From Ministeria vibrans ATCC 50519 (Eukaryota > Protista > Filasterea): a stretch of DNA of 52,557 bases. A program made the translations under genes and the position numbers. Location: NCBI GenBank assembly GCA_943704425.1, contig CALSCP010001883.1, positions 1 through 52,557 of the forward strand, in the 5' to 3' direction. Below, in pieces: positions 2,911 through 51,853 of this stretch (position 1 is its first letter; each line of letters opens with the position of its first letter). The notes below the pieces were generated by a model. That model was not told the DNA's origin and did not search any database. It was given only the letters and a program-made list of their open reading frames with translations.

Positions 2911-5199
2911 TTATTGATTCATTTTGGTCTCATTGCACACACTTTCTCGATGGGCCATCATTAGTTTCGGTGCTACAAAACAACACAAAAAAGTAAAAAA
3001 GCAAAAACAAACAAACAAGAAAACATATCTTTTGACCTACCTTTTGCTGTGACAATCTGTGAAAAGGACACAAATTCAGTCTGAGGTGGCAAAGTGGGCT
3101 GGGGAGCACTCAGTTTGGCCGACAGTCCATTGAGAAGCCATAATGACCATTCCACTATGTGCGCGTGAAGAATCAGTTAATTGAAATACTTCTTCTTTGA
3201 TGTACCGGATAATTCCATTGAATCACACACAGGGAACAATTGAGCAAGATAGAGAGCACATTTAGACTGAGAGCGATCGATTCCAACAAACAAAGAATCT
3301 AAAGGAAGAAGGTGAGAAAAAGTAGTGACAGAAAGAGAAAAAGTGACAAAAAGAGAAAGAACAATGGGACAGAAAAAGAAAGAACAATGCGATAAAAAGA
3401 AAAAGTACAAAGTAAAAAAAAAACAAAGTGACAGAAGGAGAAAAAACATGCGATAGAACAAAGTAGAACAAAGTAAAAGAAACAAAGTGATAGAGGGAAA
3501 GAACAAAAGAACCAAGAGAGAATACCGATCGAACGAGCAGTGAGCTGTGCGTAATGTGAGAGAGTGGAAGCACAAAAGGGCAGATTGTCTGGATGAGACC
3601 AGTCACAAGCGCCCTTGAGAGACTCGCGGATGTGGAAGACGAGGGTGACGTATGCGCCGGTGGGATGGCAAGGAGTGCGAGTGGCGGCGGTGTGGAGAAA
3701 GGAGTAGGGGGGAAGGGAGGCGTTGGGAGGTAGAGTGGTTGAGCTGACGAGCGAGTGGGCGTGGATAGTCGCGGGGCCTGTCAGACGCGTGTATTCGAGA
3801 ACGACAGTGGACAAGGGCGTAGCAAGAGGCCCTGGGCCGCACACGTGCATGAAGCACGAAGCGTTGCTCTCCTTATGAGGTGTGAGCTGCGTGCGCGTGG
3901 AGACGTGGCGGGTGCGCTCGAGGGAAACTTCGTGATGGAAAACCGGGGAGCAGCACAGGTGATGAATGTACTCAGTGAGAGTGCCAAAGTGGTAGAAGCG
4001 AGAAGGATTGAGTAGCAGGACGTGCATAGGGGTGCCGCGCAGTGCATCGTACACGGCCCGGCGGGTCTGAGCCAGGGCGCTGTCGGAGGGGTCCACGACG
4101 TTGGCCGAGACCCCGCAGTAATCGGGCGTGCTGCGCGTACCGAGCGCTTGAAGGAAGTCACCGTACGCGTCGACCTCGCTGGTGATGGGCGCGAGTTTGT
4201 CATAAAGGGCAAGAAGAGTGCGTGCGGTAGTGCGATCCAGCGAGAAGGCACTGTCTGTGTACACAAAGGGCTCTTCGTCTTCCCCCCCAGCCACCACTGC
4301 CCCTTCACTGTGCATCTTCTCACGCGTTTCCTTGTGCAAGAATAGCTGGCATTCGGCCATTTGCGCGGGCAGATCGGCTTGTGGGGTCTCAGCAAGCACA
4401 AAGACGCCGTGGGTCGTGCCAATCTCGAGGGAACTCGGATGGCCCAGTGCAGTGACGCCTGGACGCGACAGGGACCACGCTGCCTCGTCAGTGCCCAAGT
4501 CAAACAGCTCAAAAGTGTCGCCGGCACAGCAAAAGACCGCACCGGCCGGAAGCGCCCGTGGGAAGTCGATGAACGACGCGAGTTTCATCTCGAGAACATG
4601 AAACATAGGATCACCGAGAGGAAGTGCTGTAAACACCTTGCCCATGACACTCGCATTGGGAAGTCTAATAAACACAGTGAGATGAGAGGAGGAGATGGAA
4701 GAGAGCGTGGCGGGCGGTACCGTTGGCTGTAGCCGCCCGCATGACACACAAACACTCTGCCTGCGTCCATGTTGGCGGTGCCGTGCCGCTCTTCAAGATA
4801 GCGCAGCAGAAACAGCGTGGATCCACCGCAGCCAATCTTGTAGCCGGGGGGATCCGGAACAACGTGGTATTGGCAGCCTCTGGGGAGCTAGTGCGGCACG
4901 GGGCAATGGGAGGGGCAGGGGGAGGGGGAGTCAAAACAGAAAGCAAATACACAATGTCCTTTCACCTCGCCCGACTGCAGCTTGGCGTCGATTTGAAGAC
5001 GAAAGGCCTCAGCCTGATCTTCGTCGCCTGCCGTCACCACCACATAGTCCCAGAAGACCTCACCAGCGGCGGTTTCGTCGGCAAGCCGAGTGCGACGGAA
5101 TACATCGAAGCGACGCCAGCGATCGGCCGTGACTTGACGCAGCCGATCAGACTGGGCGGAGAAGGAGGGCGCCGATGGATCGGATTCAGACTTGGACAT
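2911..5199 (-). CDS. FPGT: Fucose-1-phosphate guanylyltransferase (GDP-L-fucose pyrophosphorylase), multi-exon
   Basis: Spliced motifs FWDYVVVTAGDEDQAEAFRLQI, DPPGYKIGCGGSTL, HAGGYSQR/LPNASVMGKVFTALP, CCAGDT, ALGHPSSLEIGTTHGVFVL, FLHK, VDAYGDFLQALG, FYHFGTLTEY. Last exons approximate. Confidence 0.9.
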
Positions 5200-33317: not shown

Positions 33318-36300
33318 GAGTAAAAGTCAGAACCCACCCATTTCAAAATTGAAAAGTCAGAACCCACCCATTTTCAAATCCTTGCTCAGAACCCACCCAT
33401 TTTCAAATCCTTGCTCAGAACCCACCCATTTTCAAATCCTTGCTCAGAACCCACCCACAGACCCACTTTCAAATCCTTGCTCAGAACCCACCCATTCCAA
33501 TTTCCAGATAGGCGAATTGGCGACATCAGATTTCCGTCATTCCATGCATTCGCATGCAAGCTTGCCTGTTGCTTGGTACGTTTGGTGTTTCTTATTATCT
33601 CTAAAGTTGGTATGTTTGGTGTTTCTTATTATCTCTAAAGCATCATTGTTGAATGATCACTATCTGCACTGATCACTCTTTTTGTTACGCCGTTGTCTTC
33701 TTCTTTTGCCATGGAGGGCGACACAGTGGATGCCGCGATGCTTGGGGACGATAGCGATGCTGGAGGCGTGCCTCGCACAGTCAGGAGCACGCGATTGATT
33801 TTGGCGCGCAAACGCTAAATCTCTCTGCTTCCTCCCTGCAGACACGCGATTTCATCGCCCTGGGCGACACTGTCCCACAGGCCGAGTACAAGGATACTTT
33901 CAAGCCTGGGAGTGCATTTCCATCAAAATCCGCTCTAAACGACGGACGCTACCGACTCGAGGCGCTCACGAATCTGCAGTCGCGCTGCCTGCAGAACAAC
34001 AACTCGATGCGCTTCACGTTTGTGTGTTCGACGGCGCCCAAGGAGTCTACGCGCGTGCCCGAAGCCGGCTGCACGTTCCACGTACGCGCGCGCGCCCGTG
34101 GCAGCGAATTTGTTGTCCTCTCCTCCAACCTCGTCCACACATGCGACTCACTCGCCAACCGCAGCAGCGTCCGCCGCAACCCGTCGCTGTCGGTCAGCGC
34201 CGTGGCCAACGCCGCCCGCTCGGTCGTGCCGACGACTCTTTCCGGCAAACGCGGCGATGCGACGAAAGCAATGCTCGCCAAAACCGGAGACGGCGCCGCC
34301 GCGAGCGCGTCGGCGCTGCGTCGCGGGGTTACTGTCGCGTCATCCGAATTCGCGGCGACTACGCACGCTGAGCCGTGGGGCGCTCTCGTTGCCTACATCG
34401 ACGCCTTTGACAAGGCCGACACGCTCAACTTGGGCGTGTTCGAAGTGGACGCCGACGTTTCGCCAGACGGCTGCGCTACATTCAAGCGCGCGATCTTGTG
34501 CCCTGGATCTACTGTCAGAATGCTGACCAGCGGCCTCGTCAGCGACATTGTCTGCATTGACTTCGGTCATCTCGGCGGGCGCGTCCGCAGCGTCGAATCG
34601 TTTCTTCATGCTCACATTGAAGGTGCGTACGGGCGCATGCTGGCCCGGCCGTGGAGCGACGTGGACACGACGATGATGCGGACGAGGACGACGAGGAGAA
34701 CGAGAGTGGTGCAGGCGAGGACGAAGCGGCGAGCCGTGCTGGCGTCGGTGGCCAAGCTGAACGGAAGCGCGCGGCAACAGAGCTAGAGGAGAGTACCGGC
34801 GACACGATGGCCAAGCGCCGTCGATGCATGGGACGACCGGCGGCGACCACATCTGGCTTTGGCAGCCTCGCGGTCGTCACAGCGCGCACGTTCACGCAGT
34901 CGCGCGTATTGCTCGCTGTGGGTGTGGTGGAGAAGGAGAGCGCTGAGGAAGCCAAATGGGTGCTCGAGACGATGGAAGCACATGTGCGATTCACACAGCA
35001 CCACGGCGGCATCAAAGTGATCTGCGATCGTGGCATCGCACTCAACAGTGCGATTGGCCAAGTGTACGGAGAGCTCGCCGACGTCGTCCACTGCATAATC
35101 CACTTCAAGCGCAATCTTTGCGGATTCCTGGCGACGTGCGACGACCTCACCAGCAAGGCTGACCGAATCGTCATCATGCAACATTTCGAGGTCGCCGCCA
35201 ACACCCCAGACACGCTCGTCTTCGAGGACGCCATGGCTGCTATCGAGCGACTGAGCAAGAAGAGCTTCAAGTACATCACCGACGGTCATCCGCCGCGCGA
35301 GTGGGCTGCGAGCGTGATCGGACAACGCTTTAATCCGTTCGGCAACACAACGAGCAACGACGCTGAGACAGTGTTTGCGGCCGCGAGCGAGGAGAAGCGG
35401 CAGAGTGGCCCACTCGAGACTGTGCGAAAGGTGGTGGCCGACGCAGCGGCGCGCATCTACCAGGCGAAATCATTCTCGCGCCGGCCGGGCAACTTCTTGG
35501 CATCAGCTGCAATGAATAAGGAGTTCAACAGCCGTGCGCAATGGGGTGCCAGCAACCTCCGACTGGTCGTGCAACTGGACAACGAGCGTGTCCACGTCGC
35601 CAGCCACGACTGCCCCAGGCGCACTCTTGAAGTGGATCTGGCTGAGGCCACGCCGCGATCGTCTTGGTGCTCCTGTGGTCGCAACGCAGTCGATATTCTC
35701 CCGTGTGTACACGTGATTTGGGCTGTGAAGATCTTTAAGCTGCGCGGCGGCGACGAGGCCTCGATTGTCCTCCCCGAGTCAACAGCGGCGTTCGTTTCCG
35801 AGCGCCTCCGAAACATCACAATGTACGTGCCGCCGACCAGCAACCTGCGCGCTGCGCCGAACATCAAGGCGCCGGTGTGGATCACGGTGGAGGTGCCGCG
35901 TTCCTACATTTTGCAGTCACCAACCCTTGTCAACATTGTGGAGCGCTCGGCCCCCGTGGCGCTCACGTCCAAGCAAGCTTTTCTTGCAATCACCGGGGCG
36001 CAAGCTCGGACTGGCGCACGCCATTCATCGTTCGGCGAGATCGACGTGAACGAAATGGCCGCGAAGCGCATCGCCGGCAACGAGATGCGCAAGAAGGTGA
36101 AGGTGACTTTGGGCGACGTGGCCGAGGCGCTGGGCAAGATCAACAAGCAGAGCAGCTCCGCAACAACTACAACGTCTACAGCAACAGCTACAACAACTAC
36201 AACCACCTCAACGACACCCACAACCCCCGCGTCGGCTGCGCCCAACCCACCGACGGGCGACGCAGGCGATGAGGGGAAAACCAAGAAGAGCCGCGGCCGG

Positions 36301-36620
36301 CGCCCATGCCAGGCTTGCGGCCAGCTTGGACATTACAAAAAGACGTGTCCAAAGCGCGAAATGAGCACGCCAGTTGAGCTTGGCGAGAATCAAGAGAACG
36401 AAGAGTGAAGCGAAATGAGTGAAAGAATTAAGAAAGAAAGTTTGTGGAAAATGGGTGGGTTCTGATCAAGGATTTGAAAATGGGTGGGTTCTGAGCAAGG
36501 ATTTGAAAATGGGTGGGTTCTGAGCAAGGATTTGAAAATGGGTGGGTTCTGAGCAAGGATTTGAAAATGGGTGGGTTCTGACTTTTCAATTTTGAAATGG
36601 GTGGGTTCTGACTTTCACTC
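33318..36620 (+). mobile_element. Complete Mutator-like (MULE) DNA transposon with foldback-type tandem-repeat TIRs and 9-bp TSD
   Basis: TATAATAAT at 33309-33317 and 36621-36629; ends GAGTAAAAGTCAGAACCCACCC... and ...GGGTGGGTTCTGACTTTCACTC; six CAGAACCCACCCA cores (~29-bp period) on each side. Confidence 0.95.
33711..36408 (+). CDS. MULE (MuDR-type) DDE transposase with SWIM and C-terminal CCHC knuckle; needs an intron or frameshift near 34621-34786
   Basis: N-terminal C..C..HxC DNA-binding motif; VCIDFGHL (D1), VICDRG (D2), HCIIHFKRN (CxxH), TTSNDAET (E), SWIM CSC..PCVH, CQACGQLGHYKKTC. Start and first intron approximate. Confidence 0.85.
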
Positions 36621-39732: not shown

Positions 39733-40549
39733 TTACAGGAAGGAAAGGTCGGCCATGTCGCGCGACGCCTCTTCGGCGGGATTGAAGCGTCTGCGTCGTT
39801 GCTGGGGCGAATGGAATGTGAGTGCGTCGTTGATAATGTCGATGCAGAGACCGGTGGCGCGGGCAAGAGCGGCAGGCGTAGACCCACTGCGGGTGGTAGC
39901 GATGAGGTCTGCGCCTGAGCCGATGAGCCAGCGCACACACGTGGCCTTCTCCGAGGTGACTGCGACGTGAAGGGGCGTAAGTCCATCGTTGGTGCGCACT
40001 TCGAGATGTTTGGTGTGCGAGTCGGCGTCACAGAGAGCAGCGAGGGTCGACGGGCGTCCACTGGCCGCAGCAAAGTGGGCTGCCTGAAAGCCCGACGCGG
40101 CCACGGCACTCGTGTCGACACCCTGGCTAACGAGCCAGCGCACAGCCGTATGGCGCCCGTTGATGCACGCCACATGCAATGGAGTGTGCTGCTTGTTGTC
40201 GCGTGTCTCGAGGGCTTGCACCCCATGCATCTTGACCAAGCGGCGCAAGACATGGACACTGCCCACCTGTGCCGCCGCATGAACGCTGCTGCTTCCCGGC
40301 GAGCCCGGTGTGCTCGCCCGTGCACTCGATGCGTCGCAGCTTTCGTGCGTCGACACTGGTGAGCGCACCACCACCTGTTGCACCCGTCCGTTGTCATCAC
40401 CGTGCTGTTCCTGATGGTGGTGATGGTGGTCATCATCTTCCTCTGACGATGACGAAAAGTCGACAATGTCTGAATGGGTGGATTTGTGGGTGCGCTCATC
40501 GCGTTCCCCTCGAAAGAAACTCGTGTCCAAATCCTTGCTCCTCTCCTGC

Positions 40550-40581
<32 letters not shown>

Positions 40582-42014
40582 TTCGAGTTCCAATGCCTCT
40601 GGGGCGCGTGCGGGACGACCTCGTTTGTTCATAGACGCAGCAACACGCGGGCGGCCTGGCAGAGTGGGCGGCACGACAGGCAGTTCATCGTCATCAGTAT
40701 CGTCGTGTTGTCGTCGTGTCCGCTGCGCTCCATCCCCATCCTGCTGTGCGTCCATCATTACCTCGTCATTGTCGTCGTCTTCGATGAAAGAATCGTCTGC
40801 ATAGTCGTCGTCTTCGTCTTCGTGGATGAGAAACGCTGGCGATGCAGACTGTGCACGCTCACCACGCTCGCTCCCACTTGTGCTACCACCCTCAGTCTCC
40901 TCCTTCTCCTCTTCCTTGTCAGTCTCTTCTTCTCCGCTTTCTTCTTCGCCCTCTTTTTCTCCTTCACTCTCAGCTTCTTCACTCTCTTCCTCTTCGTCAT
41001 CACTACTCGTAGTCTCACCATCATCATCATCATCAAAAATTTCGTCGTCGTACAAATCGGCACCGTCGGGCTCTTCCTCCTCTTCCTCCTCCTTCTGCTC
41101 TCGCTGCTGCACCACCACTCGTTGCATGGGCTCTGAACGGCGGGATTCTTTTCGGGGTGGCTCGACTCGACGGGCTGGGCGTGCCTCCCGTTGCGCGAGG
41201 GACGACGCCACCAAAGGCGACTTGGCCAAGGGCTGATCTGGTTTGCGTCGTCGCGCACTGCTCGCTGCACTTCGCGTCTCAGTCGCTTGCCCTGCGCTTC
41301 GCTGAGGTTTGCGATACGGCGACACGTAGTGCCGGCGCGGATCGCTGGCGCATAGAATGCGTGCTGCAGCAAGTGTAACAATGGCGTCTGAGGCGCCGCC
41401 GCTGCTCACGACTGGTGGTCGTGCCGTCCCAGCGCTTTTTGCACGTTTCTTGCGCGGCTGGCCGGTGTGCGTGGGAGCGCTCGACTCAAGAGCCACAATC
41501 TCTTGCACGATATGGTGTGCCAGCTGAGCCCGTTCGCTTTGACGGCGCGCGCGTTCTCGCTCGCGATGCGACAACATGTCTTCGTCGAGTCGTCGGCCGT
41601 ACACGTCGACAAGACCCGCTCGACGAATGTGTGCTCTCATGCGAGGCTTGGCAAAGTATGATTGTAATGCCTCGTCCTAGAAGCGAAGCGAGAGCACATT
41701 GAGGCGTTTGTGTGTGTGTATTTTTTTTTTAAACGATTGCCATGACGACCAGTAAATAAAAAACAAATAAATGCTTGCGCTTGCTGTCATACCCTGGTGG
41801 GATCGTAATCGAGAATTGAAGGGCCTCGCGTACTAGCGGGGGGTCTCCAGGGACTGGTGTCGAACTGTGCTTCGCGACGGCGGATCGTGAGCTGATCCTG
41901 CAAGTTGCGCGCCAGTGCCTGAATGGCCGCCGGCGATCGACCCGCCGACGCATGGCTCAAGTCAATTTGAGTTGGTTCAGGACGATGGCCGGCCGACTTT
42001 GAACGGCGGCTCAT
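39733..42014 (-). CDS. Protein with ERICH3/FSIP2-like N-terminal motif, long acidic linker and C-terminal ankyrin repeats (2 exons)
   Basis: Spliced LDYDPTR|DEALQSYFAKPRMRAHIRRAGLVD; Glu/Asp-rich tract; ankyrin motifs TPLHVACINGR, AAHFAAASGR, GLTPLHVAV, GSTPAALA. Confidence 0.78.
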
Positions 42015-42482
42015 TAGTAAAAAAGAAGTATTTAGTTTAATTATTTTAGTTATCCATGAGATTTAGTATCAGTGGGTCTATGGGCTAATCACGGGCTAAT
42101 TGGGCTTTTGGGACATTCTCGTCTAGAAGTCTACACTCTACAGTGGAAGTTTTATCATTTGTGCTGCTCTTTGTTTTGCTATTTGTATATAGTCTTGAGG
42201 GTCCGTCTTGGGTTTGAAATCAAGTACACCTCTCGTTTCTTTATTTATTTTTGCGCAATGGGAGTGTTGTGCAGTGGCTGCATCATATGGGTAGGAACGG
42301 GTGCCGTCGTTGTTCTCTGGTTGGCTGTCACGTACGCAGAAGTGGGTGTGGTGTGGTGGATCTCGATGCTTCATTTGAGCGACTGTCCAGTGGGCAGTTC
42401 AAATATTTAAATGCGACCAGCAACGGGGACAACTCACTCACCGGACAAGACTATTATTATTAATTTTGAATTTTCACTTTTT

Positions 42483-45400
42483 TCACCACTCGTCCACTTG
42501 GAAGTTCCGTAACAGCACACCAGACTCGGGCTGATCTCCACGCGCCACACTCTTATACCCGTCAAGAACTGGGTCAAGGACGCGTGCTGCTCCATCTTCG
42601 TTGCTCAGTGGCGGTGTCTTGGACCAACGTGTGGGCACACCGGGCCGCTGCCGACTCACCCAGCCTGTGTCGACTGCGGTGACAAAGACACCCGCTGGGG
42701 CAAGCTGCGTTGCCGTTGAGCGCGTCAGCTGGTTCAGTGCCGACTTGGCCATGTTGGTGTGCACATGCTCGCCCGTCTTTTCCGCTCCCGCACGTCCGCC
42801 AAAGGAACCCTCGGGCGACGTCACATTGACAACGAAACCCGGCTCGGCGCGGCCCATCATGCGCGGCACAAGTGTCTCCATGAGCATGGTGGGCGCAATC
42901 ACATTGATTAACTGCACCTCAAGCATCTCAGTAAACGACACCTGTTCGCGCCCAAACAGACCTCGATTCCAGCTCGTCTCGCGCCTCAAGTCCACGGGAA
43001 CACCGTCACGGTCCACACGTCCCGCGGGAAACCACTGCGTGTGATTGTGCTTCTCCAGCGATGCGTAATCTTCGTCGCACAGTGGCATCGTTGCTAGTTG
43101 TGCCGCGCTGTGTTGCGTGAGTGCCATTGAATTTGATGTGAACGACCGCGTCGGGTGTCCTGACGTCGAGGTCAGAGCATCGTCACAATCAACCATCTCC
43201 CATGAAGACGACGACGACGACGAAGAGCTGTCACCATCGTCGTCGTTGCCGTTCTTCTCCGTGAGTGGCGGTACACATCTCCCTCCCGGCAATGCCGACA
43301 CTGGTACGTAGCCTTCTTCGCGTGCCGCCTGCTCCAGGTAGTAGCCGGCCGGGCGTCGAATGGTCTGCGCTGCGTTGTTGATGAGAATGTCGACACGGCC
43401 CGACACCCCGAGCGCGTCCACAATACGACCAATGCTCACCTCGACAAAGCGAAAGTCCACTTCAACGAGTGCAAGGCGATCGGCCCAGTCGGCGTAGTCG
43501 GGTTCGTTGCGGTAGCGTGTGCGTGCGTCCGTCGGGAACCGTGTCGTTGCAATCACTTGGGCACCCAGGCGCAGCAAGCGCACTGCAATAGCGTAGCCAA
43601 TTTTAATGCGTGCGCCCGTCACCACCGCTGTTTTCCCATGCAGATCCACCTTTTGGTTGCGCTTGTGAGCGTTCAACGCAGCGCACTCGTGGCACACCGG
43701 CACCTGCATTGGACTGAGCGTGTCGCCATCTTCGGCGTACGTCTGATGCGGGACGCACTCGGGCGTCACGCGCTTCATGCACATGTAGCATGACGGCAAG
43801 TAGACACTGGCGTCGCCCGTGCCCACCAGTCGATTCCATTTGAAGGTACTTCCGCGCCACACCTCGCCCACGTCGTCGCCCACCGCAAAGCCATGGCGTC
43901 GATTGAGTACGTTCACAATTCGATGGGTGTCACGCTCAAAGCGTAAATGAGGTCCAAACGCATACTCGAGCTCGAGGTCATCTTCGTCGGGCACATGCCG
44001 TTGGCCCGCCAACTTTGAAGCGTCAAGAACCACCTCAGGTGTGTCGGCCCAGTAGCGTCGCAGGCGTACATGCCAGTCGCGAATGACCCGCTGGGCGATG
44101 GTGGCGGCCAAGACGCTTGTCGAGGAGTACACCTCGTTCATCGCTCTGTACGACTCGCTCAACAGTCCCAAATCCACTGCTTCACGGCACACTACATCGC
44201 AGCGCGGCTCATGCTTGCAAACCTATAATAATAATAATAATAAAATTAAAAAACCAATACAAAACTTTTGGTTTAGTTTGAAAAATAGCTGAGCAATATT
44301 AAATCACCTCAAAGCAAAGCGACGAGAAGCCTCGATTGGCGTACTTGATGAGACGGTGCGCTTGACGAGGACGACGTAATACACCGGGCTCAACCAGATT
44401 GCTATGCGTGTTTACAGCGCGCACCGCTCGCTGAGTCGCAAATACCTTAAAAAGGAATAAGTTTTATTGTTCTTGTTCTCGAATGAATTCAAGGTATTAC
44501 CTCAGAGCCGTCGTAGGCAAAAGCAGTGCAATCCAGGTCGCAAAAAGTCAAGAGCTCGTCGAGGGAGCGACTGACTAGCAGAACCATCTGAACGGGGCGA
44601 TAGGGTGCGCCCGCAATGAGCGTGACTGTGTTTGGTGTGGCCACCAACTTGACGGAGCCAATGTGTCCTTGAGCCTCCAATTGCGCCTTCACTTGCGCCA
44701 CCACTGTTTCCACCTGTGATCGAACCTTATTATTATTATCCAAAAAGACGTATTAATATTATTGTTTGTCATTGATTAATATTAGCAAAAAAACAAACAA
44801 ACAAATATTATATACCTTTTCGAGTGAATCTCCAATGAGGAACAAATCTATGTCCGCGTCGCCAAATGGCCCCTCGTCGTAATGCTTTCTCAGCTACGAA
44901 TAATAATAATAATAAAAAATAATTATATTAATTATTATTATTATATAATAAAACTAATATTATAATTATTATAAATTATAATTATATCAATTATTAATTT
45001 TATTATTATTATTGTTATTGTTATTAAGAACACTAAATTCTCCCTTTTGTCTTACTTGAGCTTCGTAGGCTTGTAGGGGCTGCGAGAAGACATTGCCCAC
45101 ACGTTCTATGTGGTCAATGAGCTCCGGTGGCAAACGTAGCTGCCACACAGCACGATTGTAATCGCAGAGCTCGCGACGCATCTGCGCGAGCTCCTTTGGT
45201 AAAGGCAGCAGAGCAGCGAGCACGACACTGCCTGCAAGCACAAGTGAGGTGCAATCGAGTTGCACACGATCGAGCATGCCGTGGGTGAGGACATGAAGAT
45301 TGTGCTTGAAGACTGCTAGCGAGTCGACAACACTACACTCATTTTGTGTTGGACGCGCGTCAGCACCCTTGCCAACCAACATGGGGTGGCTGCGCTCGCT

Positions 45401-46269
45401 GCGGTTGAGACTACGTCGTTCAACAACGACCGCGTGGCTGTGCAGTGGGTAAAGCGGAAACGGTTTGCAGGCGGAGTGGGCGGGAAGCTCGAGCTGGAGC
45501 ACACTTGTTGTGGGAGTTGCATTGTCGTTGGGTTCTTCGACGGGGCGCTGTCCAATGAAGCGCTTGCGAGCGGCAAATATTTCACGCGAGAGGCTCTCAT
45601 TGAGCATGTCTCCTGTAATCACCTCGCTCCAGGCGACATTGTACGCCTGTGTGTGGTAGAGATGACGGTCGAGCTCGCACGCAAGTGTGTACAGCAGGTG
45701 ACTCACGAGCAGTTGACCATAGCGAAGTGACCCGGAGTTGATCGCCCTCGCAAAAGACACGATTTTGATGCGACCGTTCTCGACACAGGCGCGTGACTCG
45801 ACACCAGCCTGAGAAAAAATTTAGTGTGGAGCAAACAACAGTAGATAAATTTTAATGTTACGGCTCGCGCAAGGGTGCCAAAGTCCTCAACGTCTGCGAG
45901 GGAAGGAGGCGCCCGAGACACCTTTTCCGCTGACGAAGAGGAATGTTCTATTGATCTTGTGGCTGTTGTCGAAGAGCTGCTGCGTGCTGCCACTGCCGTC
46001 CAGGGGGTGCGGGTGTTGTTTGCGCGCGAAAAGTTCGACCGAGCGGAACCGGGAGCGCCACGTCTGCTCGACGCGTTGTTGGTGGGCAAGAAAAAGCGAC
46101 CTTTGTGCTTAAAATCACGCTCGTAGGCAAGCTGGGTCTGACGCGACCGCTCACTTGCAGACCGGCGACTGGATATGTACTCTTTGCGAGTTCGATGGTC
46201 GCATCGAGTGGCGTACGAAATGCGCGCTTGACGACGCGCACTGCGGGCCAGGTAGACGTAGTCGTCCAT
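42483..46269 (-). CDS. ~1113-aa fusion of a Pol-beta-superfamily nucleotidyltransferase-like domain and a Cys-motif atypical SDR; exons 46269-45862, 45808-45056, 44893-44816, 44725-44501, 44445-44308, 44222-42483
   Basis: Five phase-0 GT-AG introns give one open frame. NTase-like: LVLAGSVV..DADIDLFLIG..TVTL..PVQMVL..DLDCTAFAYDG..RAVRA..RLIKYANRGF. SDR: CYMC..CHEC, VVTGARIKIG, TTRFP, LINNAAQT, HTNMAKSALN, AVDTGW, DGAARVLDP. Confidence 0.8.
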
Positions 46270-46588
46270 GGGGGGAAGCAAGCGCAATCAATGAGAACAG
46301 CAAACGAAGAAGAAAGAGTGAGTGGTGAGAGGTGGAAGAACGAGCGTCTGTCATTGTTTTTGTTGATGATGCAACAGAGGAAGTGTCTGGAACAAAAAAG
46401 AGCGCATCATCATCATGATGGTTGCTTTGTTTGTGTGTGCAGCCAACAAAACAAACTCAGCTGGCTCTGTGAGCTCTGTGCAAAATGCGAGGATTTAACA
46501 TAGAGAGAGAGAGAGAGAGAGAAAGGAGGAGGATCAATAGTTTCAATACTTATTTTCTCTATTTATTTTTCTTTTTTGGCGTTTGGGA

Positions 46589-47707
46589 ATGACAAGTGCG
46601 CCTAACGATGGTGTCCGAATGGCATCGGATTACGCCAGCAGATCGGATTTGCAGTCAATGGTCGCCAAGGCACTGAGCGAGGTTCTTCGCGAAGCTGTTC
46701 AAGAACACTCTCTCCCGTCGCCTTATGCGGCGCTCGACTGCGGCGTTGCGACCGGATTGCAGTCGTCTGAGTTGTGCAAGGTTGTGCTAGAGTCGCTGCC
46801 GGCCTCCGATGACGAGGTGCGCGAGGAATGAGCCGACGAGTTAGTTTTGTACGTCACCTTGTTTATTGTCTGTCCCCAGATTCACTGGGTGCTTAACGAC
46901 ACTCCCTCCAACGACTGGAACACCTTATTTGGTACCGTTGCGGCGTCGCTGAAGGAGACGGGCCGAGCCTTCTTCTCCGGTGTGGGCAAGTCGATGTACG
47001 GCCCGCTGATGCCGTCGTCGTCGCTGTCGCTGGTCGTCTCGTCCACCGCTTTGCATTGGTACGGCGGCCACTCGCTTCCCTTGTCGGGCGATCACTTCTT
47101 TAGCTTCTGCGAGGAATCACCCGCTGCCACCACCGACTTTCTTGCGCTCTGGTCGTGCTTTTTGCACGAGCGTCTGCGCGAGCTCAAGTCTGGCGGTCTC
47201 TTTGTTGCGTCCATTCCCACCGCGTTTGATCGCACGTCGTTCATTTATGCACTCACTGAGGAGACCTCCAAATGCATTATGAGCTCACCCGAGCTACAAG
47301 ATGCGCACGGTGTGCGTCTGCCCTTCACACGCGGCCCAATCCACCTGGTGTCGCTCGAGGAGCGTCTCGCAACCATCACGGACACGCCAAGGCTGGCCGC
47401 TGGCTTCCGTGTGCTCCTGGCACGCGACAACGACGACCCCATCACGCCATGGTACCAGAACTACCTTCAAGCTGACGACAAGGCGGCCGCAGCACAGACC
47501 TTTGTCACCACTGCCGTGTCCAACCTAATGATGGGCGTTGCGGCGGGCGTACTCACCGACGCTCTCGAGCACGCCAACTGTCCCGACATCCCCGCCCGCC
47601 TTGCCCGCCTCCAACACGCCATTGTTGATGCCGCCTTGTCCCGCTTTCAGGCCGCTCCTTCCGACGTCATTTATCCTTCATGCACCATTGTCCTGCAGAA
47701 AGTGTAA
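46589..47707 (+). CDS. SABATH-family SAM-dependent carboxyl methyltransferase; intron about 46817-46879
   Basis: LDCGVATG, LNDTPSNDWNTLF, GVGKSMYGPLMP..SLSLVVSSTALHW, FLHERLRELKSGG. Confidence 0.85.
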
Positions 47708-47990
47708 TAATAATAAAATTAATTATTTTTATTATATTATTATAATAATAACAATCATTATAATTATTCATAATAATTAACAAATGGGTTGTATTCTTCT
47801 TCTTCTAATTAATAATATTTTAGTATTGGCGTACCATTGCAATTATCTCACTGAATAGCGATTGCACTCGTGCTTTTGTTGTTGATCCTGTGATGTATTC
47901 TTCTTCTTCTTTCCTTCTTCTTCTTCTTCTTATTATTATTTTTGTTATTATTTCTGTATGATTTCTTTGGGAGAATGTGAAAGGAGACCA

Positions 47991-49196
47991 ATGTCAGTGG
48001 ACGAAGGTGCGCGGCTTGTACATCTCATGATTGGTGACAAAGACGGACCGTTGAATGGAAAGTTTGCATCGCGGTTTCCTCTGCTTGATTCAACTCTTGT
48101 AATGAACGTGCCTGCGACAATCGAGGCGCACTTCAGGCGTGGCGAGCCAGACACACACACGCTTGCGTCTCAGCTGGACGCAACGCATCCAGTGGCGTCG
48201 CGGCTGCTCTTAGCGTCCGTCGAAGAGTACACCACTCGACACGCATTACGCGCGCAGCGACACAGAGTGGCGCGCGGCGCATTTGGCGCTGTGTTTGCCT
48301 TTGGTGGGGCGACTGCAGTCAAAGAGATCCCAGCCTTCTCTCACGATGGACGGTGTGTCTTTGTAGACGTGTACAACGAAGTCCGGTACTTTGACTCATG
48401 GGATCAGACCTTGTTTTGATACGTTGAATTTTTGTAACTGGCAGGATTTTGAGCAAACTTGTGGATGTGGAAGGAGTGATCAAGTTGCTCGATTATGGAC
48501 GCGATCCATACGTCTTTTGGTTGTGTATGCCGCTGTTTGAGCAAAATGCAAGAGAGGTAAGTAAATCAGTTTCATTTTTAAGCACCGAGTCGGTTTGAGC
48601 CGTTCTTTGTGAATTGCTTTCTTCAGTGGCGCCACGAAAAGGGACTTCAGCTGGACAAAGCAATGCATATTCTGGAGCGAGTGGCGACGACTCTTGCTGA
48701 AATTCACGGGCAGCATGGAATTAGCCACTGTGACGTGCGCGGTGCAAATGTACTACTGAGGCCGTTGGGTGAGTCACCTTCGGACATGTCAGTGGTGTTG
48801 GCTGACTTTGGAAGTGCCGTGGAATCACAAGGATCGTATGAGTGCACATGGGGTCGTGGGGGTGTGGATGGGCTGAGTGCACCCGAGTCACGCGCAGCAG
48901 AAGCAGACGAAGTGGGAGTACCTATTGGCTGTGCGGATGTCTGGTCGCTTGGCTGTCTCCTTTTTGAATTGCTCACCGATGCCTTTTTACTGCTCACCAG
49001 CGATGACACTCCGGACTGGTCCGCTACCGGTCTACAGCTCGAGAATGCTCTCGAGATGAACCAACCAAATTCAAAGAAGCGTGAGTGTGCGGCTTTTCGG
49101 ACACTCATTGACACACTCGTGTGTCCCCAGTGGGCCTTGCGACCTTCAAGCACGGACGCAATGCATCTGATCAAACGAATGTATCATATAGAATAG
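47991..49196 (+). CDS. Divergent non-RD protein kinase (3 exons)
   Basis: ARGAFGAV, AVKEI, NE, LLDYG, HCDVRGANVLL, ADFGSA, SAPE, ADVWSLGCLLFEL, LRPS. Start could be 47958. Confidence 0.82.
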
Positions 49197-50252: not shown

Positions 50253-51853
50253 ATGAAGCTCGCTCTGTTCTCCTGCCTGGCTACTCTTGCGGTTGCCGCT
50301 ACAAACGACCGCCAGAACTTCATTTTCGTCCTTATGGACGACTGGGGCATCGGAGATGTGAATGCGTATGGCGGTGGGAAGGCTCCCGGAGTGACGACGA
50401 GAGGTATGCGTCATTTGTGGTTTCGTAAAAGTCAACAATGCTTTTCCGTGCGTCCCATTTGTACACACCCAGAGTGCCTATTTTGACCCTTGACCCTTGA
50501 ATTGCAGTGCAAACGCCAAACATCGATGCTCTCGCCAGTGCGGGCACCTTGTTCACTGACTTCCACGGCAGCAATCCGGTGTGCAGTCCGTCCCGTGCCT
50601 CCTTCATGACGTCGCGCTACCCATCTGAGCTCAAGATTCACACGGCGCTCAGCACAAACCCAAAGAACAACGAGAAGGTCGGCTGCACCAACTTCTTGCC
50701 GCCCAGCACGCCCACTGTGACACAGTTTATGCAATCGAATGGCTACTTCGTGGGCCACTACGGCAAGTGGCATCTTGGGGGCACGCCCGACGCACCACCA
50801 CCGCGCGCCTACGGCATTAACGACAGCGCTACGTTCAACAGTCACGGTGACACACCACTTGGCAATACGTCGGAGGCGTACTGGGCAGGCAAGTCATCGA
50901 CAATCATCATTGACCATGCGATTGACGCAATGCGAAATGCCTCTGCTCTCGGCGTGCCCTTCTACCTCAACCTCTGGTTCCACATCTCGCACGCTCAACT
51001 TGATCCTACACCCGAACAACTCGCCGTGTACAAATCTGTCTGTCGGAAGATGTCATCTCTGCAGCCCATCTGTAATCAACAAATCTTCTGGGCGTCTCAG
51101 ACGGATGCAGACACACAAGTCGGGCGTCTTATGGCTGCACTGCACGAACTCAATCTGGCCAAGTCGACCCTTGTCGCTCTCAGTGCCGACAACGGACCCG
51201 AAGAGCCCATGGTGTTTTCTAATGCGATGGGCTCGACGGGCCCGTTCCGCGGACGCAAGCGCAGTTTGTACGAAGGGGGAACGCGTCTCCCTTTCATTGT
51301 GTCGCAGCCAGGCACTGTTCCCGAGGGGCGGGTGGACCGTGATTCACTCTTGGGTGCCGTCGATTGGTTTCCGACTGTGGCCGCCATGGCTAATCTCACG
51401 CTGCCCTCGTCTGTCACTGAGACACTCGATGGAGTGGACATGAGTGCTGCGTTGCGCGGGGAAGGGTTTACCCGCACTCAGCCACTGCTGAGCGAGTGGC
51501 GTTTTGGCGTTGCAGGACCATGTTGGAATGCGGCACCGCAGCTGTCCGCTCGCTTGGGTGACTACAAACTGCTTATGAATGTTGATGAGTCGCGTGTTGA
51601 GCTGTACAACATGAGCCGTGTCTATGCGGGTTGGTCGGGATTCCTTTTGGAGACTCGCGACATTGCTTCTGCCAATCCTGAGATTGTTGCCTCGCTGCGC
51701 ACTCCCTTGCTTGCTTGGCAGAAGACACTGCCCTCGGGCCACTATGCCGGCGTCGAGGCGTGCGACGCAAGCTTCTTCAACCCGGCCCATGCCAGTCTGG
51801 CGATGGGGGTTGCTTTGAACGATGACATAGAAGACGCCGAGCTTGTGTTTTGA
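50253..51853 (+). CDS. Secreted formylglycine-dependent (S1) sulfatase; intron about 50404-50507
   Basis: Signal peptide, NFIFVLMDDWGIGD, TPNIDALA, CSPSRASFMTSRYP, GKWHLG, ADNG, GRKRSLYEGGTRLP. Confidence 0.93.

Follow-up and report, generated by a model that had tools for sequence, protein, structure and literature searches.

A spliced gene of Ministeria vibrans encodes a fusion of a predicted Gad2-family nucleotidyltransferase with an apparently atypical zinc-ribbon short-chain dehydrogenase/reductase

Introduction

The phage protein Gad2, 400 amino acids (aa) in length, has been described as blocking Gabija and predicted to be a nucleotidyltransferase (NTase) (10.1101/2023.05.01.538930); a Gad2-annotated homolog from a Pseudomonas phage is described as slowing host growth (10.64898/2026.09.15.751885), and the accessible text of a 2026 review names no Gad2 substrate (PMC13670838). 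For Pandoravirus NTases, a conserved Gln has been described in place of the third carboxylate (10.1101/2023.12.02.569716). For the short-chain dehydrogenases/reductases (SDRs), we rely on the published motif definitions and classical Ser-Tyr-Lys mechanism; the same source describes divergent SDRs as reducing C=C bonds with protonation from solvent and some Tyr-less SDRs as redox sensors (PMC2792337). Here we analyse a gene joining members of these two superfamilies, located on the minus strand (positions 42483-46269) of a 52,557-nucleotide (nt) contig from the filasterean Ministeria vibrans ATCC 50519 (GenBank CALSCP010001883.1), the whole of which is called the window below. An earlier sequence-only reading of this DNA had proposed that four apparently separate open reading frames (ORFs) and two mini-exons conceal one fusion protein of ~1113 aa.

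Results

One spliced gene encodes the fusion

The gene is a single spliced unit encoding an 1113-aa fusion. Six GC-rich exons and five AT-rich introns (GC content 0.49-0.60 and 0.10-0.28, respectively) yield 1113 codons followed by one terminal stop, all introns being of the GT-AG type and in phase 0, with sizes of 53, 162, 90, 55 and 85 nt. Part of the window is contained in 20 public sequencing runs, none recorded as RNA, of which eight were examined, their types being guessed. Contig 1 of run X1 (3407 nt) extends from position 46285 to a tail of 20 T at 42454, and contig 14 of run X3 (3478 nt) starts at 46287 and ends at 42365. All five introns are missing from each, and subtracting the 445 intron bases from the span (and adding the tail) gives exactly the observed lengths. 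CT..AC skips account for three of the joints (53, 55 and 90 nt); the other two introns, of 85 and 162 nt, fall within masked repeats, and their splicing is deduced from the table of contig pieces. The junction 44308/44222 is joined in five of the eight runs (X1, X2 and X3 from study P1, X7 from P4 and X17 from P9); among the pieces listed for X5 and X6, none spans it. A colinear contig (43069-44889) of the DNA-type run X15 retains introns 3-5. We read the runs with joined exons as transcripts because spliced, poly(A)-ended contigs could hardly arise from genomic DNA.

Together, the gene model and the exact-length contigs confirm the single frame through five phase-0 introns proposed by the sequence-only reading, which had singled out the 44308/44222 junction for checking, and all motifs that it quoted are present in the product: LAGS at residue 327, DADIDLF at 399, DLDC at 476, AYDG at 483, KYANRGF at 522, CxxC at 679 and 711, TGARIKIG at 736 and HTNMAK at 1022. 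The SDR does reside in one intronless exon, as had been stated, but exon 6 also carries the 136-aa linker and most of the NTase tail (E-x-C-x-H-x-P-R-C, residues 534-542), which spans intron 5. The N-terminus of a fused homolog is disordered in its structure model. Contig ends farther out on the 3' side (42253-42380) were found in X2, X3, X6 and X17. Several runs share single-base differences from the window (43276 C>A, 43944 T>C and 45950 A>G, plus strand), which are likely alleles or strains.

The fusion recurs in several eukaryotic lineages

Longer relatives of exon 6 comprise 42 proteins, half of which (21) carry both PF26128 and adh_short. Fused members were found in dictyostelids, Physarum, Protostelium, chytrids, dinoflagellates and the choanoflagellate Didymoeca; the protein of Dictyostelium discoideum AX4 (Q55C33/XP_646648.2, 997 aa) comprises the full fusion, with 30% identity over 870 aa and a pairwise E-value (E) of 2e-110. 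By all appearances, the fusion is an old, widespread eukaryotic family and no local accident. The architecture search that the sequence-only reading had proposed for protists and giant viruses thus shows that the fusion is not unique to Ministeria, but none of the viral and metagenome contigs searched contains it in full. At two viral loci, the apparent fusion looks like a chance match to an unrelated dehydrogenase-like ORF (locus L081 inspected).

Three full fusions (P0003, P0170 and P0177) are recorded on ENA/Logan contigs of 0.11, 1.07 and 2.07 Mb. Five fused paralogs, of dictyostelids and chytrids where named (P0180, P0202, P0183, P0189 and P0192), retain an intact NTase and have lost the HxHTNMAK motif of the SDR. 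The full-text literature searched, which does not extend to most subscription papers, contains no description of the fusion architecture or of the Dictyostelium protein, the three accessions of which are mentioned in none of it; to this extent it agrees with the earlier statement that no characterised protein with this architecture was known.

Trees of 89, 47 and 95 hand-picked rows, taken from 182 SDR and 154 NTase domains, were quick and have no true root. All 51 fused SDRs of the 89-row SDR tree fall into one branch together with four shorter and two GTPase-fused proteins (Shimodaira-Hasegawa approximate likelihood-ratio test, SH-aLRT, 99), and the 26 fused SDRs of the 47-row tree form one side of a branch (SH-aLRT 99). 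In the NTase tree, the proteins of the Ank/BTB/PARP type form a separate group of 31 rows (SH-aLRT 99). Forcing the window SDR together with seven stand-alone SDRs of the myxobacterial type was rejected by the approximately unbiased (AU) test (p 0.0007), and with it a recent pickup from the sampled SDRs of this type. The test did not reject placing it beside all 18 sampled stand-alone SDRs, whether or not the fungal group was included (p 0.26 and 0.46), so that alternative placements survived two of the three AU tests. The NTase and SDR identity matrices of 48 proteins are correlated (Spearman 0.47 versus a maximum of 0.19 in 999 permutations), a co-inheritance signal that kinship alone would also produce. 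The simplest reading, though not proven, is one old fusion inherited as a unit. The later acquisition of the SDR that had been suggested from its lack of introns fares poorly: the argument is weak, since the exon starts inside the NTase tail, and the window SDR groups with the fused SDRs and not with the myxobacterial ones.

The N-terminal part is a predicted class II nucleotidyltransferase

The structure model of a homolog assigns the N-terminal part to the class II NTases, with the fold of CCA-adding enzymes and poly(A) polymerases (CCA/PAP), and its family is Pfam PF26128 'Gad2'. The family assignment was made through homologs: the precomputed label is present on 21 of the 42 long ones, and all 30 ESM Atlas matches of residues 95-520 of P0003 are Gad2 (best score 0.95). 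A profile built from 14 homolog NTase cores, excluding the window protein, matches residues 295-542 of the window model with 239 bits, in an alignment unbroken at the exon joints. Structural comparisons use the AlphaFold model of the P0003 NTase core (predicted local distance difference test, pLDDT, 90.7; 14 rows). Its best match among solved structures is 3wfo (VIA Z 12.1, root-mean-square deviation (rmsd) 5.1, 169 aligned), followed by 4wby, 3h37, 9kma and 3aql (Z 10.7-10.8), and Foldseek matches it to 3h3a with E 2.9e-4. Matches to giant-virus models are much stronger, the top one in BFVD being Fadolivirus A0A7D3QUG1 (E 3.8e-14, TM 0.72). The CCA/poly(A)-polymerase-type fold and the link to giant viruses put forward by the sequence-only reading thus agree with the structure searches; the supposedly uncharacterised group is, however, already named in Pfam. 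A sequence search of the PDB with the NTase profile gave no match, and PHROGs gave weak matches only (phrog_1614, nucleotidyltransferase, E 0.12, 2 of 14).

Motif A (hG[GS]...DhD) is present on a Pol-beta fold, and its DxD is invariant in all 55 fused proteins, as are all of D401, D403, Q459, D476, K522 and R526 (domains shorter than 150 or longer than 360 aa were excluded from the NTase motif counts). The spacer between GS and DxD measures 70 residues, compared with the usual 9-13, and is helical in the model. Gln459, found in 153 of 153 homologs, would by analogy with the Pandoravirus NTases be the equivalent of the third carboxylate. Motif B (RRD) is absent from the window NTase, which has FCDLDC at 474-479 instead, and so is EDxxR, in the place of which stands QAH-R519, without a conserved E or D in the fused members. 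The absence of RRD and EDxxR and the 70-residue spacer rule out a CCA-adding enzyme. The tRNA-binding body/tail domain of CCA enzymes does not appear in the match lists of the full homolog model, which are filled by the SDR. Given the invariant D401, D403, Q459, D476, K522 and R526, the Gln at the third carboxylate and the missing RRD and EDxxR, the domain is likely an active transferase of nucleoside monophosphates (NMPs) of a non-CCA kind.

The motif C-x-H-x-x-R-C is found in 51 of 55 fused NTases and in few others. Of 48 fused proteins, 21 have an F-box-like pattern (LPxE[IL]xxxI) in the insert (mean of 1.0 and maximum of 5 in 500 shuffles); the pattern, picked after viewing the alignment, is also present in 14 of 106 other NTases, and the Pfam F-box matches none of the 14 fused proteins scanned, so we treat a putative F-box-like insert as a lead only. 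Against 1.84 billion representatives, the NTase profile retrieved 5686 proteins at E<=0.001. An SDR-profile match, weak in some cases, accompanies 55 of the best 150 hits, the remainder being mostly ankyrin proteins (a group of 59 members) or, among 30 proteins scanned, fusions to BTB, PARP, ubiquitin, WWE, PBZ, SAM or TPR. In four proteins (P0237, P0261, P0284 and P0214), ADP-ribose-related partners of a Gad2-type NTase recur: PARP with ubiquitin (on a 1.25-Mb ENA contig), PARP, BTB with WWE (Naegleria) and ankyrin with PBZ (Gefionella). Short stand-alone relatives of P0003 240-520 were not found among 505 candidates.

The C-terminal part is a zinc-ribbon SDR with an unusual predicted active site

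From its conserved residues, the C-terminal part is assigned to Zn-ribbon SDRs that lack the catalytic Tyr and carry a putative Glu...His-x-His...Lys site. Exon 6 matches adh_short with E 5.4e-17, and the full P0003 model (pLDDT 79.9, predicted TM score (pTM) 0.73) has a standard SDR fold (Z 23.9, rmsd 2.3, 229 aligned). Relatives number at least 1254 at E<=1e-30, the named ones being mostly stand-alone proteins of bacteria and oomycetes, and the number of sequence stretches with such an SDR is estimated at about 1200; this bears out the earlier description of an atypical Zn-motif SDR known mostly as a stand-alone bacterial protein. Some homologs are labelled 'Uncharacterized protein R665', which we take to refer to mimivirus R665.

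Residues were counted in 182 SDRs (54 fused and 128 other members). T736, G737, R739, G743, R762, W952, E1005, H1020, H1022, N1024 and K1027 are invariant in all of them. That HTNMAK replaces YxxxK, as the sequence-only reading had it, holds, but in the alignment to solved SDRs the position of the catalytic Tyr is occupied by Thr1023 and not by a His. Position 1003 is Ser in 51 of 54 fused members and Ala in 111 of 128 others, and Lys stands at the second Gly position of the TG motif (TGARIKIG) in 174 of 182, a feature presumably shared with pteridine reductases. Membership of the classical SDRs was rejected, as neither TGxxx[AG]xG nor YxxxK is matched, and so was that of the divergent SDRs (enoyl reductases), with GxxxxxSxA and YxxMxxxK both unmatched; His1020 lies seven residues ahead of Lys1027, at the spot of the Tyr in YxxMxxxK. 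With Thr at the Tyr position and mostly Ala at the Ser position of non-fused relatives, a classical Ser-Tyr-Lys mechanism seems unlikely for the HxHTNMAK SDRs. By a textbook rule for SDRs, the basic residues R739 and R762 point to NADP(H).

Except among close kin, bacterial SDR loci have no metabolic or operon neighbours in common. None of 80 bacterial genome loci, 86 viral or metagenome loci and five genomes showed such an NTase near the SDR.

The two halves are predicted to pack together

Two parts cut from one chain of the homolog P0003 (residues 97-520 and 560-1019) were folded together, giving an interface score of 0.77 against 0.00 for the best of three controls; at least 64% of contacts recur between runs, and the partner pLDDT is 78 or higher. 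In calibration, the mark applied was passed by 116 of the 157 solved complexes and by 2 of the 215 mismatched pairs (39 of 65 and 2 of 126 for eukaryotes only). The best contacts join residues 462-465 of the window protein, the strand that follows the invariant Gln, to residues 661-665, the conserved Trp strand ahead of the Zn ribbon. The predicted model supports the view that the NTase and SDR halves form one structural unit, in line with the suggestion of the sequence-only reading that the two may act together.

Other Zn-SDR fusions and genomic context

The Zn-SDR was also found behind other domains. Eleven proteins of 1015-1128 aa (P0028, P0031-33, P0035-37 and P0039-42, from Xylariaceae, Diaporthe, Colletotrichum and Cladochytrium) form a second fusion family, in which it follows a conserved region of ~600 aa that starts with the F-box-like LPxELVEPIL and has no Pfam match in eight proteins scanned. 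A bacterial-type Zn-SDR lies behind DUF6602 in P0073, P0076, P0092, P0097, P0107 and P0111; P0073 matches PD-(D/E)xK and NucC nuclease profiles (NucC-like by PADLOC, E 4.5e-9 to 1.7e-5, in the one protein scanned), a PD-(D/E)xK regular expression matches none of the six, and a defence-type nuclease-reductase is possible. In P0026, P0034 and P0038, the part ahead of the Zn-SDR is a P-loop domain that matches GTP_EFTU weakly (E 5e-5 to 1.3e-3). Three viral contigs, of 530 kb, 624 kb and a giant-virus metagenome-assembled genome (GVMAG), carry it behind a region of ~300 aa (L087:9002-11071, L089:9002-11059 and L090:9017-11140). This region scores 28 with the NTase over 33 columns in hhalign, whereas 40 shuffles reach 23.6 at most, making a putative decayed NTase a lead only. 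In L087 the frame is broken by a stop. Genes for aminoacyl-tRNA synthetases lie nearby in L087 and L089 (within about 2-5 kb).

In the window, the fusion gene has a head-to-head neighbour about 240 nt away from its 5' end: a gene for a carboxyl methyltransferase dependent on S-adenosylmethionine (46543-47742, plus strand; Methyltransf_7, E 2.9e-15), with a spliced 63-nt intron. A common promoter is possible. The window neighbours (Table 1) represent an ordinary eukaryotic context, in which no cluster is evident.

Table 1. Features of the fusion gene and neighbouring matches in the window
Feature	Position	Strand	Remarks
5' untranslated region (UTR)	46270..46305	-	contigs begin at 46285-46305 on the 5' side, with no ATG further upstream
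Exon 1, aa 1-136	45862..46269	-	Arg-rich start, then Ser-rich low-complexity stretch
Intron 1, 53 nt, GT-AG, phase 0	45809..45861	-	retention would shift the frame; no in-frame stop
Exon 2, aa 137-387	45056..45808	-	helical N-domain (137-294) and NTase start
LAGS (exon 2)	45238-45227	-	part of NTase motif A
F-box-like LPPELI (exon 2)	45136-45110	-	within the helical insert
Intron 2, 162 nt, GT-AG	44894..45055	-	net 162-nt skip in contigs of X1, X3 and X7
Exon 3, aa 388-413	44816..44893	-	predicted catalytic D401-x-D403 (44854-44846)
Intron 3, 90 nt, GT-AG	44726..44815	-	
Exon 4, aa 414-488	44501..44725	-	R456-x-x-Q459 (Gln for third carboxylate)
D476-L-D-C...YDG (exon 4)	aa 476 onward	-	motif B equivalent
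Intron 4, 55 nt, GT-AG	44446..44500	-	
Exon 5, aa 489-534	44308..44445	-	R519-x-x-K522-Y-x-x-R526-G-F
Intron 5, 85 nt, GT-AG	44223..44307	-	junction creating the fusion; joined in X1, X2, X3, X7 and X17, kept in X15
Exon 6 (whole)	44222-42483	-	
Exon 6 start, aa 535-678	43791..44222	-	linker after the C-x-H-x-P-R-C-D tail, which is typical of fused members
Linker strand with conserved W663	within aa 535-678	-	predicted partner of the NTase sheet
Predicted Zn ribbon, C679-x2-C682...C711-x2-C714	43683..43790	-	in 46/46 long fused proteins; putative Zn binding, from the motif
SDR domain, aa 730-1113	42483..43637	-	TGARIKIG, R762, NNAAQT, ~140-aa insert, N974
S1003-x-E1005, H1020-x-H1022-T-N-M-A-K1027 (SDR)	within 42483..43637	-	
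Stop codon	42483-42485	-	
3' UTR	42253..42482	-	poly(A) at 42454 in X1
MULE transposase match (weak)	34621-36408	+	
Fucose pyrophosphorylase match	3299-4792	-	
Ankyrin repeats match	39733-41676	-	
Protein kinase match	48582-49196	+	
Sulfatase match	50501-51853	+	

Discussion

We give a probability of roughly 40% to the fusion being a two-step enzyme, which would add an untemplated NMP to an acceptor and carry out NADP(H) redox chemistry on the same acceptor. The Gad2-family NTase, with D401/D403 binding Mg2+, would transfer the NMP to an acceptor hydroxyl, most likely on a free nucleotide or at the 3' end of an RNA. No amino-acid template of the CCA type would be involved, given the Gln at the third carboxylate and the lack of RRD and EDxxR. 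The Zn-ribbon SDR would then move hydride to or from NADP(H), the cofactor suggested by R739 and R762, on the acceptor of the NTase. Since Thr occupies the place of the Tyr, the SDR is unlikely to be an ordinary carbonyl reductase; E1005, H1020 and H1022 would likely be acid-base groups or a metal site, serving C=C or C=N reduction or a transient oxidation. The strand just ahead of the Zn ribbon would pair with the NTase sheet and make one rigid unit of the two halves. In support of this proposal, the best matches of the homolog's NTase core among solved structures are RNA 3'-end enzymes, and the Zn-SDR fusions to a NucC-like nuclease domain and to P-loop domains with weak EF-Tu matches hint at a nucleic-acid or translation context. 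The invariant residues of both domains, the correlated identity matrices and the predicted interface also speak for it.

Several points weigh against it. A basic N-tail, a possible RNA-binding cue, is found in only 9 of 38 full-length fused proteins and was rejected as a family trait. Each domain frequently occurs without the other, the SDR lacking the NTase in most bacteria (no NTase match in the 80 + 86 loci and five genomes) and NTases without the SDR being common (any SDR match in only 55 of the top 150), and the SDR has decayed in the five fused paralogs named above. No tRNA-binding body/tail domain of CCA enzymes appears in the match lists filled by the SDR, the folds derive from the model of the homolog P0003 and not from the window protein, and the substrate is purely predicted. 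Finally, the interface, folded from two cut parts of the same chain, consists of the linker and the Zn ribbon (P0003 560-616) and leaves the Rossmann core outside, so that active-site channelling would be conjectural. Unlikely, in our estimate, is the bolder version in which a Gad2 relative became an RNA-end or nucleotide editor and its Tyr-less Glu/His/His SDR carries out redox chemistry on the nucleotidylated terminus or on a signalling nucleotide, with giant-virus decoys as a possible corollary. To our knowledge, redox chemistry directly on such a terminus or nucleotide is a reaction type without precedent among SDRs; if the version were true, a Glu/His/His site, possibly metal-bearing, would act on nucleotidylated RNA ends or signalling nucleotides, and giant viruses may carry decayed copies of the fusion as decoys.

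Somewhat unlikely, but with a coherent set of hints, is an NTase that nucleotidylates a protein, as Gad2 might Gabija, with the F-box-like insert choosing targets and the SDR acting as an NADP(H) redox sensor. Gad2 is described as blocking Gabija and as toxic in bacteria (10.1101/2023.05.01.538930), a redox-sensor role is described for some Tyr-less SDRs (PMC2792337), and sister NTases, common in giant viruses, are joined to BTB, ankyrin, PARP, ubiquitin, WWE and PBZ. The F-box-like pattern, present in 21 of 48 fused proteins against a shuffle maximum of 5, would suit target recognition, but it was chosen post hoc, recurs in 14 of 106 other NTases and goes with no Pfam F-box match (0 of 14). 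Invariance of Glu/His/His in 182 of 182 SDRs would hardly be expected of a pure sensor, PADLOC gave nothing for the four fusion-type queries among ten, and the literature searched does not report the substrate of Gad2 itself.

We also consider it unlikely that the fusion serves a small-molecule pathway, in which the NTase would activate a metabolite as an NMP adduct and the SDR would reduce it (a pterin, nucleobase, enone or acyl group). The SDR family, mainly a stand-alone bacterial enzyme (at least 1254 at E<=1e-30), would be at home in such a pathway, and C=C reduction is described for Tyr-less or divergent SDRs (PMC2792337); yet in structure the NTase comes closest to RNA-end enzymes, and bacterial SDR loci share neither metabolic neighbours beyond close kin nor an NTase. 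The Lys in the TG motif (174 of 182), presumably as in pteridine reductases, also speaks for this reading. That the two domains have unrelated jobs and were joined by history only is improbable: both occur with other partners and some paralogs have lost the SDR motifs, but the fusion has been retained in amoebozoans, chytrids, dinoflagellates and a choanoflagellate, the C-x-H-x-x-R-C motif is found in 51 of 55 fused NTases and few others, and the halves are predicted to share a sheet. Two adjacent genes wrongly joined in annotation is a reading we hardly credit, for although run types were guessed and contigs are assemblies and not single molecules, spliced contigs have the exact length, the junction is joined in three studies, the DNA is unspliced and full-length homologs are collinear (30% over 870 aa to D. 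discoideum).

The papers searched report neither a substrate for the Gad2-type NTase family (5686 representatives) nor a reaction for the HxHTNMAK Zn-SDR family (over 1200 relatives). Because a stable fusion links these two orphan families, solving one would suggest the other, and its function could also reveal how Gad2 disables Gabija. An invariant Glu-His-His replacing Ser-Tyr would represent a new SDR active-site variant, and the D. discoideum ortholog makes the fusion directly accessible to knockout and biochemistry.

Comparison with known systems

Gad2 (Bacillus phage SPbetaL7, WIT28108.1) shares with the fused homologs the PF26128 label and with the fusion NTase the motif order G-[GS]...DxD...Q...D-[LF]-[DT]...R-x-x-K-Y. 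Once the insert is masked, the fusion NTase profile aligns colinearly with Gad2 at 11.9-15.9 bits in five maskings (500 shuffles, at most 5.3), whereas the unmasked profile gives 5.2 bits, not above shuffles, and hhalign 2.3%. Gad2 differs in its short GG-to-DxD spacer and in lacking an SDR; as it is only a distant relative, its anti-Gabija function is not transferable, and identity with a functional Gad2, a phage Gabija inhibitor, was rejected for this intron-containing, eukaryotic gene. A tblastn comparison with the NTase part of P0003 gave no match in the 20 phage records listed out of 24 matching ones.

The class II CCA- and A-adding enzymes and bacterial poly(A) polymerase (3wfo, 4wby, 3h37, 9kma and 3aql) share the head-domain fold (Z 10.7-12.1) and the motif A carboxylates with the fusion NTase, which differs by the 70-aa insert in motif A, Gln for the third carboxylate, the absence of RRD and EDxxR, no body/tail domain in the match lists and the attached SDR. 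Pandoravirus BTB-NTases of cluster 7, described with Gln at the third carboxylate, DFD for RRD and no EDxxR (10.1101/2023.12.02.569716), resemble the fusion NTase in these respects, and the Ank/BTB/PARP-fused NTases of giant viruses and protists have other partner domains and a separate tree branch, the Pandoravirus proteins being outside the tree. Stand-alone HxHTNMAK Zn-SDRs of bacteria (Cystobacter, Myxococcus), oomycetes and giant viruses are 33-54% identical in the best local segments and share TGxRxKxG, NNAAQT, ExG and HxHTNMAK with the fused SDRs, but they lack the NTase, mostly have Ala at the position of Ser1003 (111 of 128) and branch apart; no characterisation of them was found in the literature searched. 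The D. discoideum protein Q55C33 contains the whole fusion, yet is annotated only as 'short-chain dehydrogenase/reductase family protein'. Since Pfam already includes both domains and automatic annotation displays their combination, the system is not new in kind; the fusion represents an uncharacterised, testable variant made from two known domain families.

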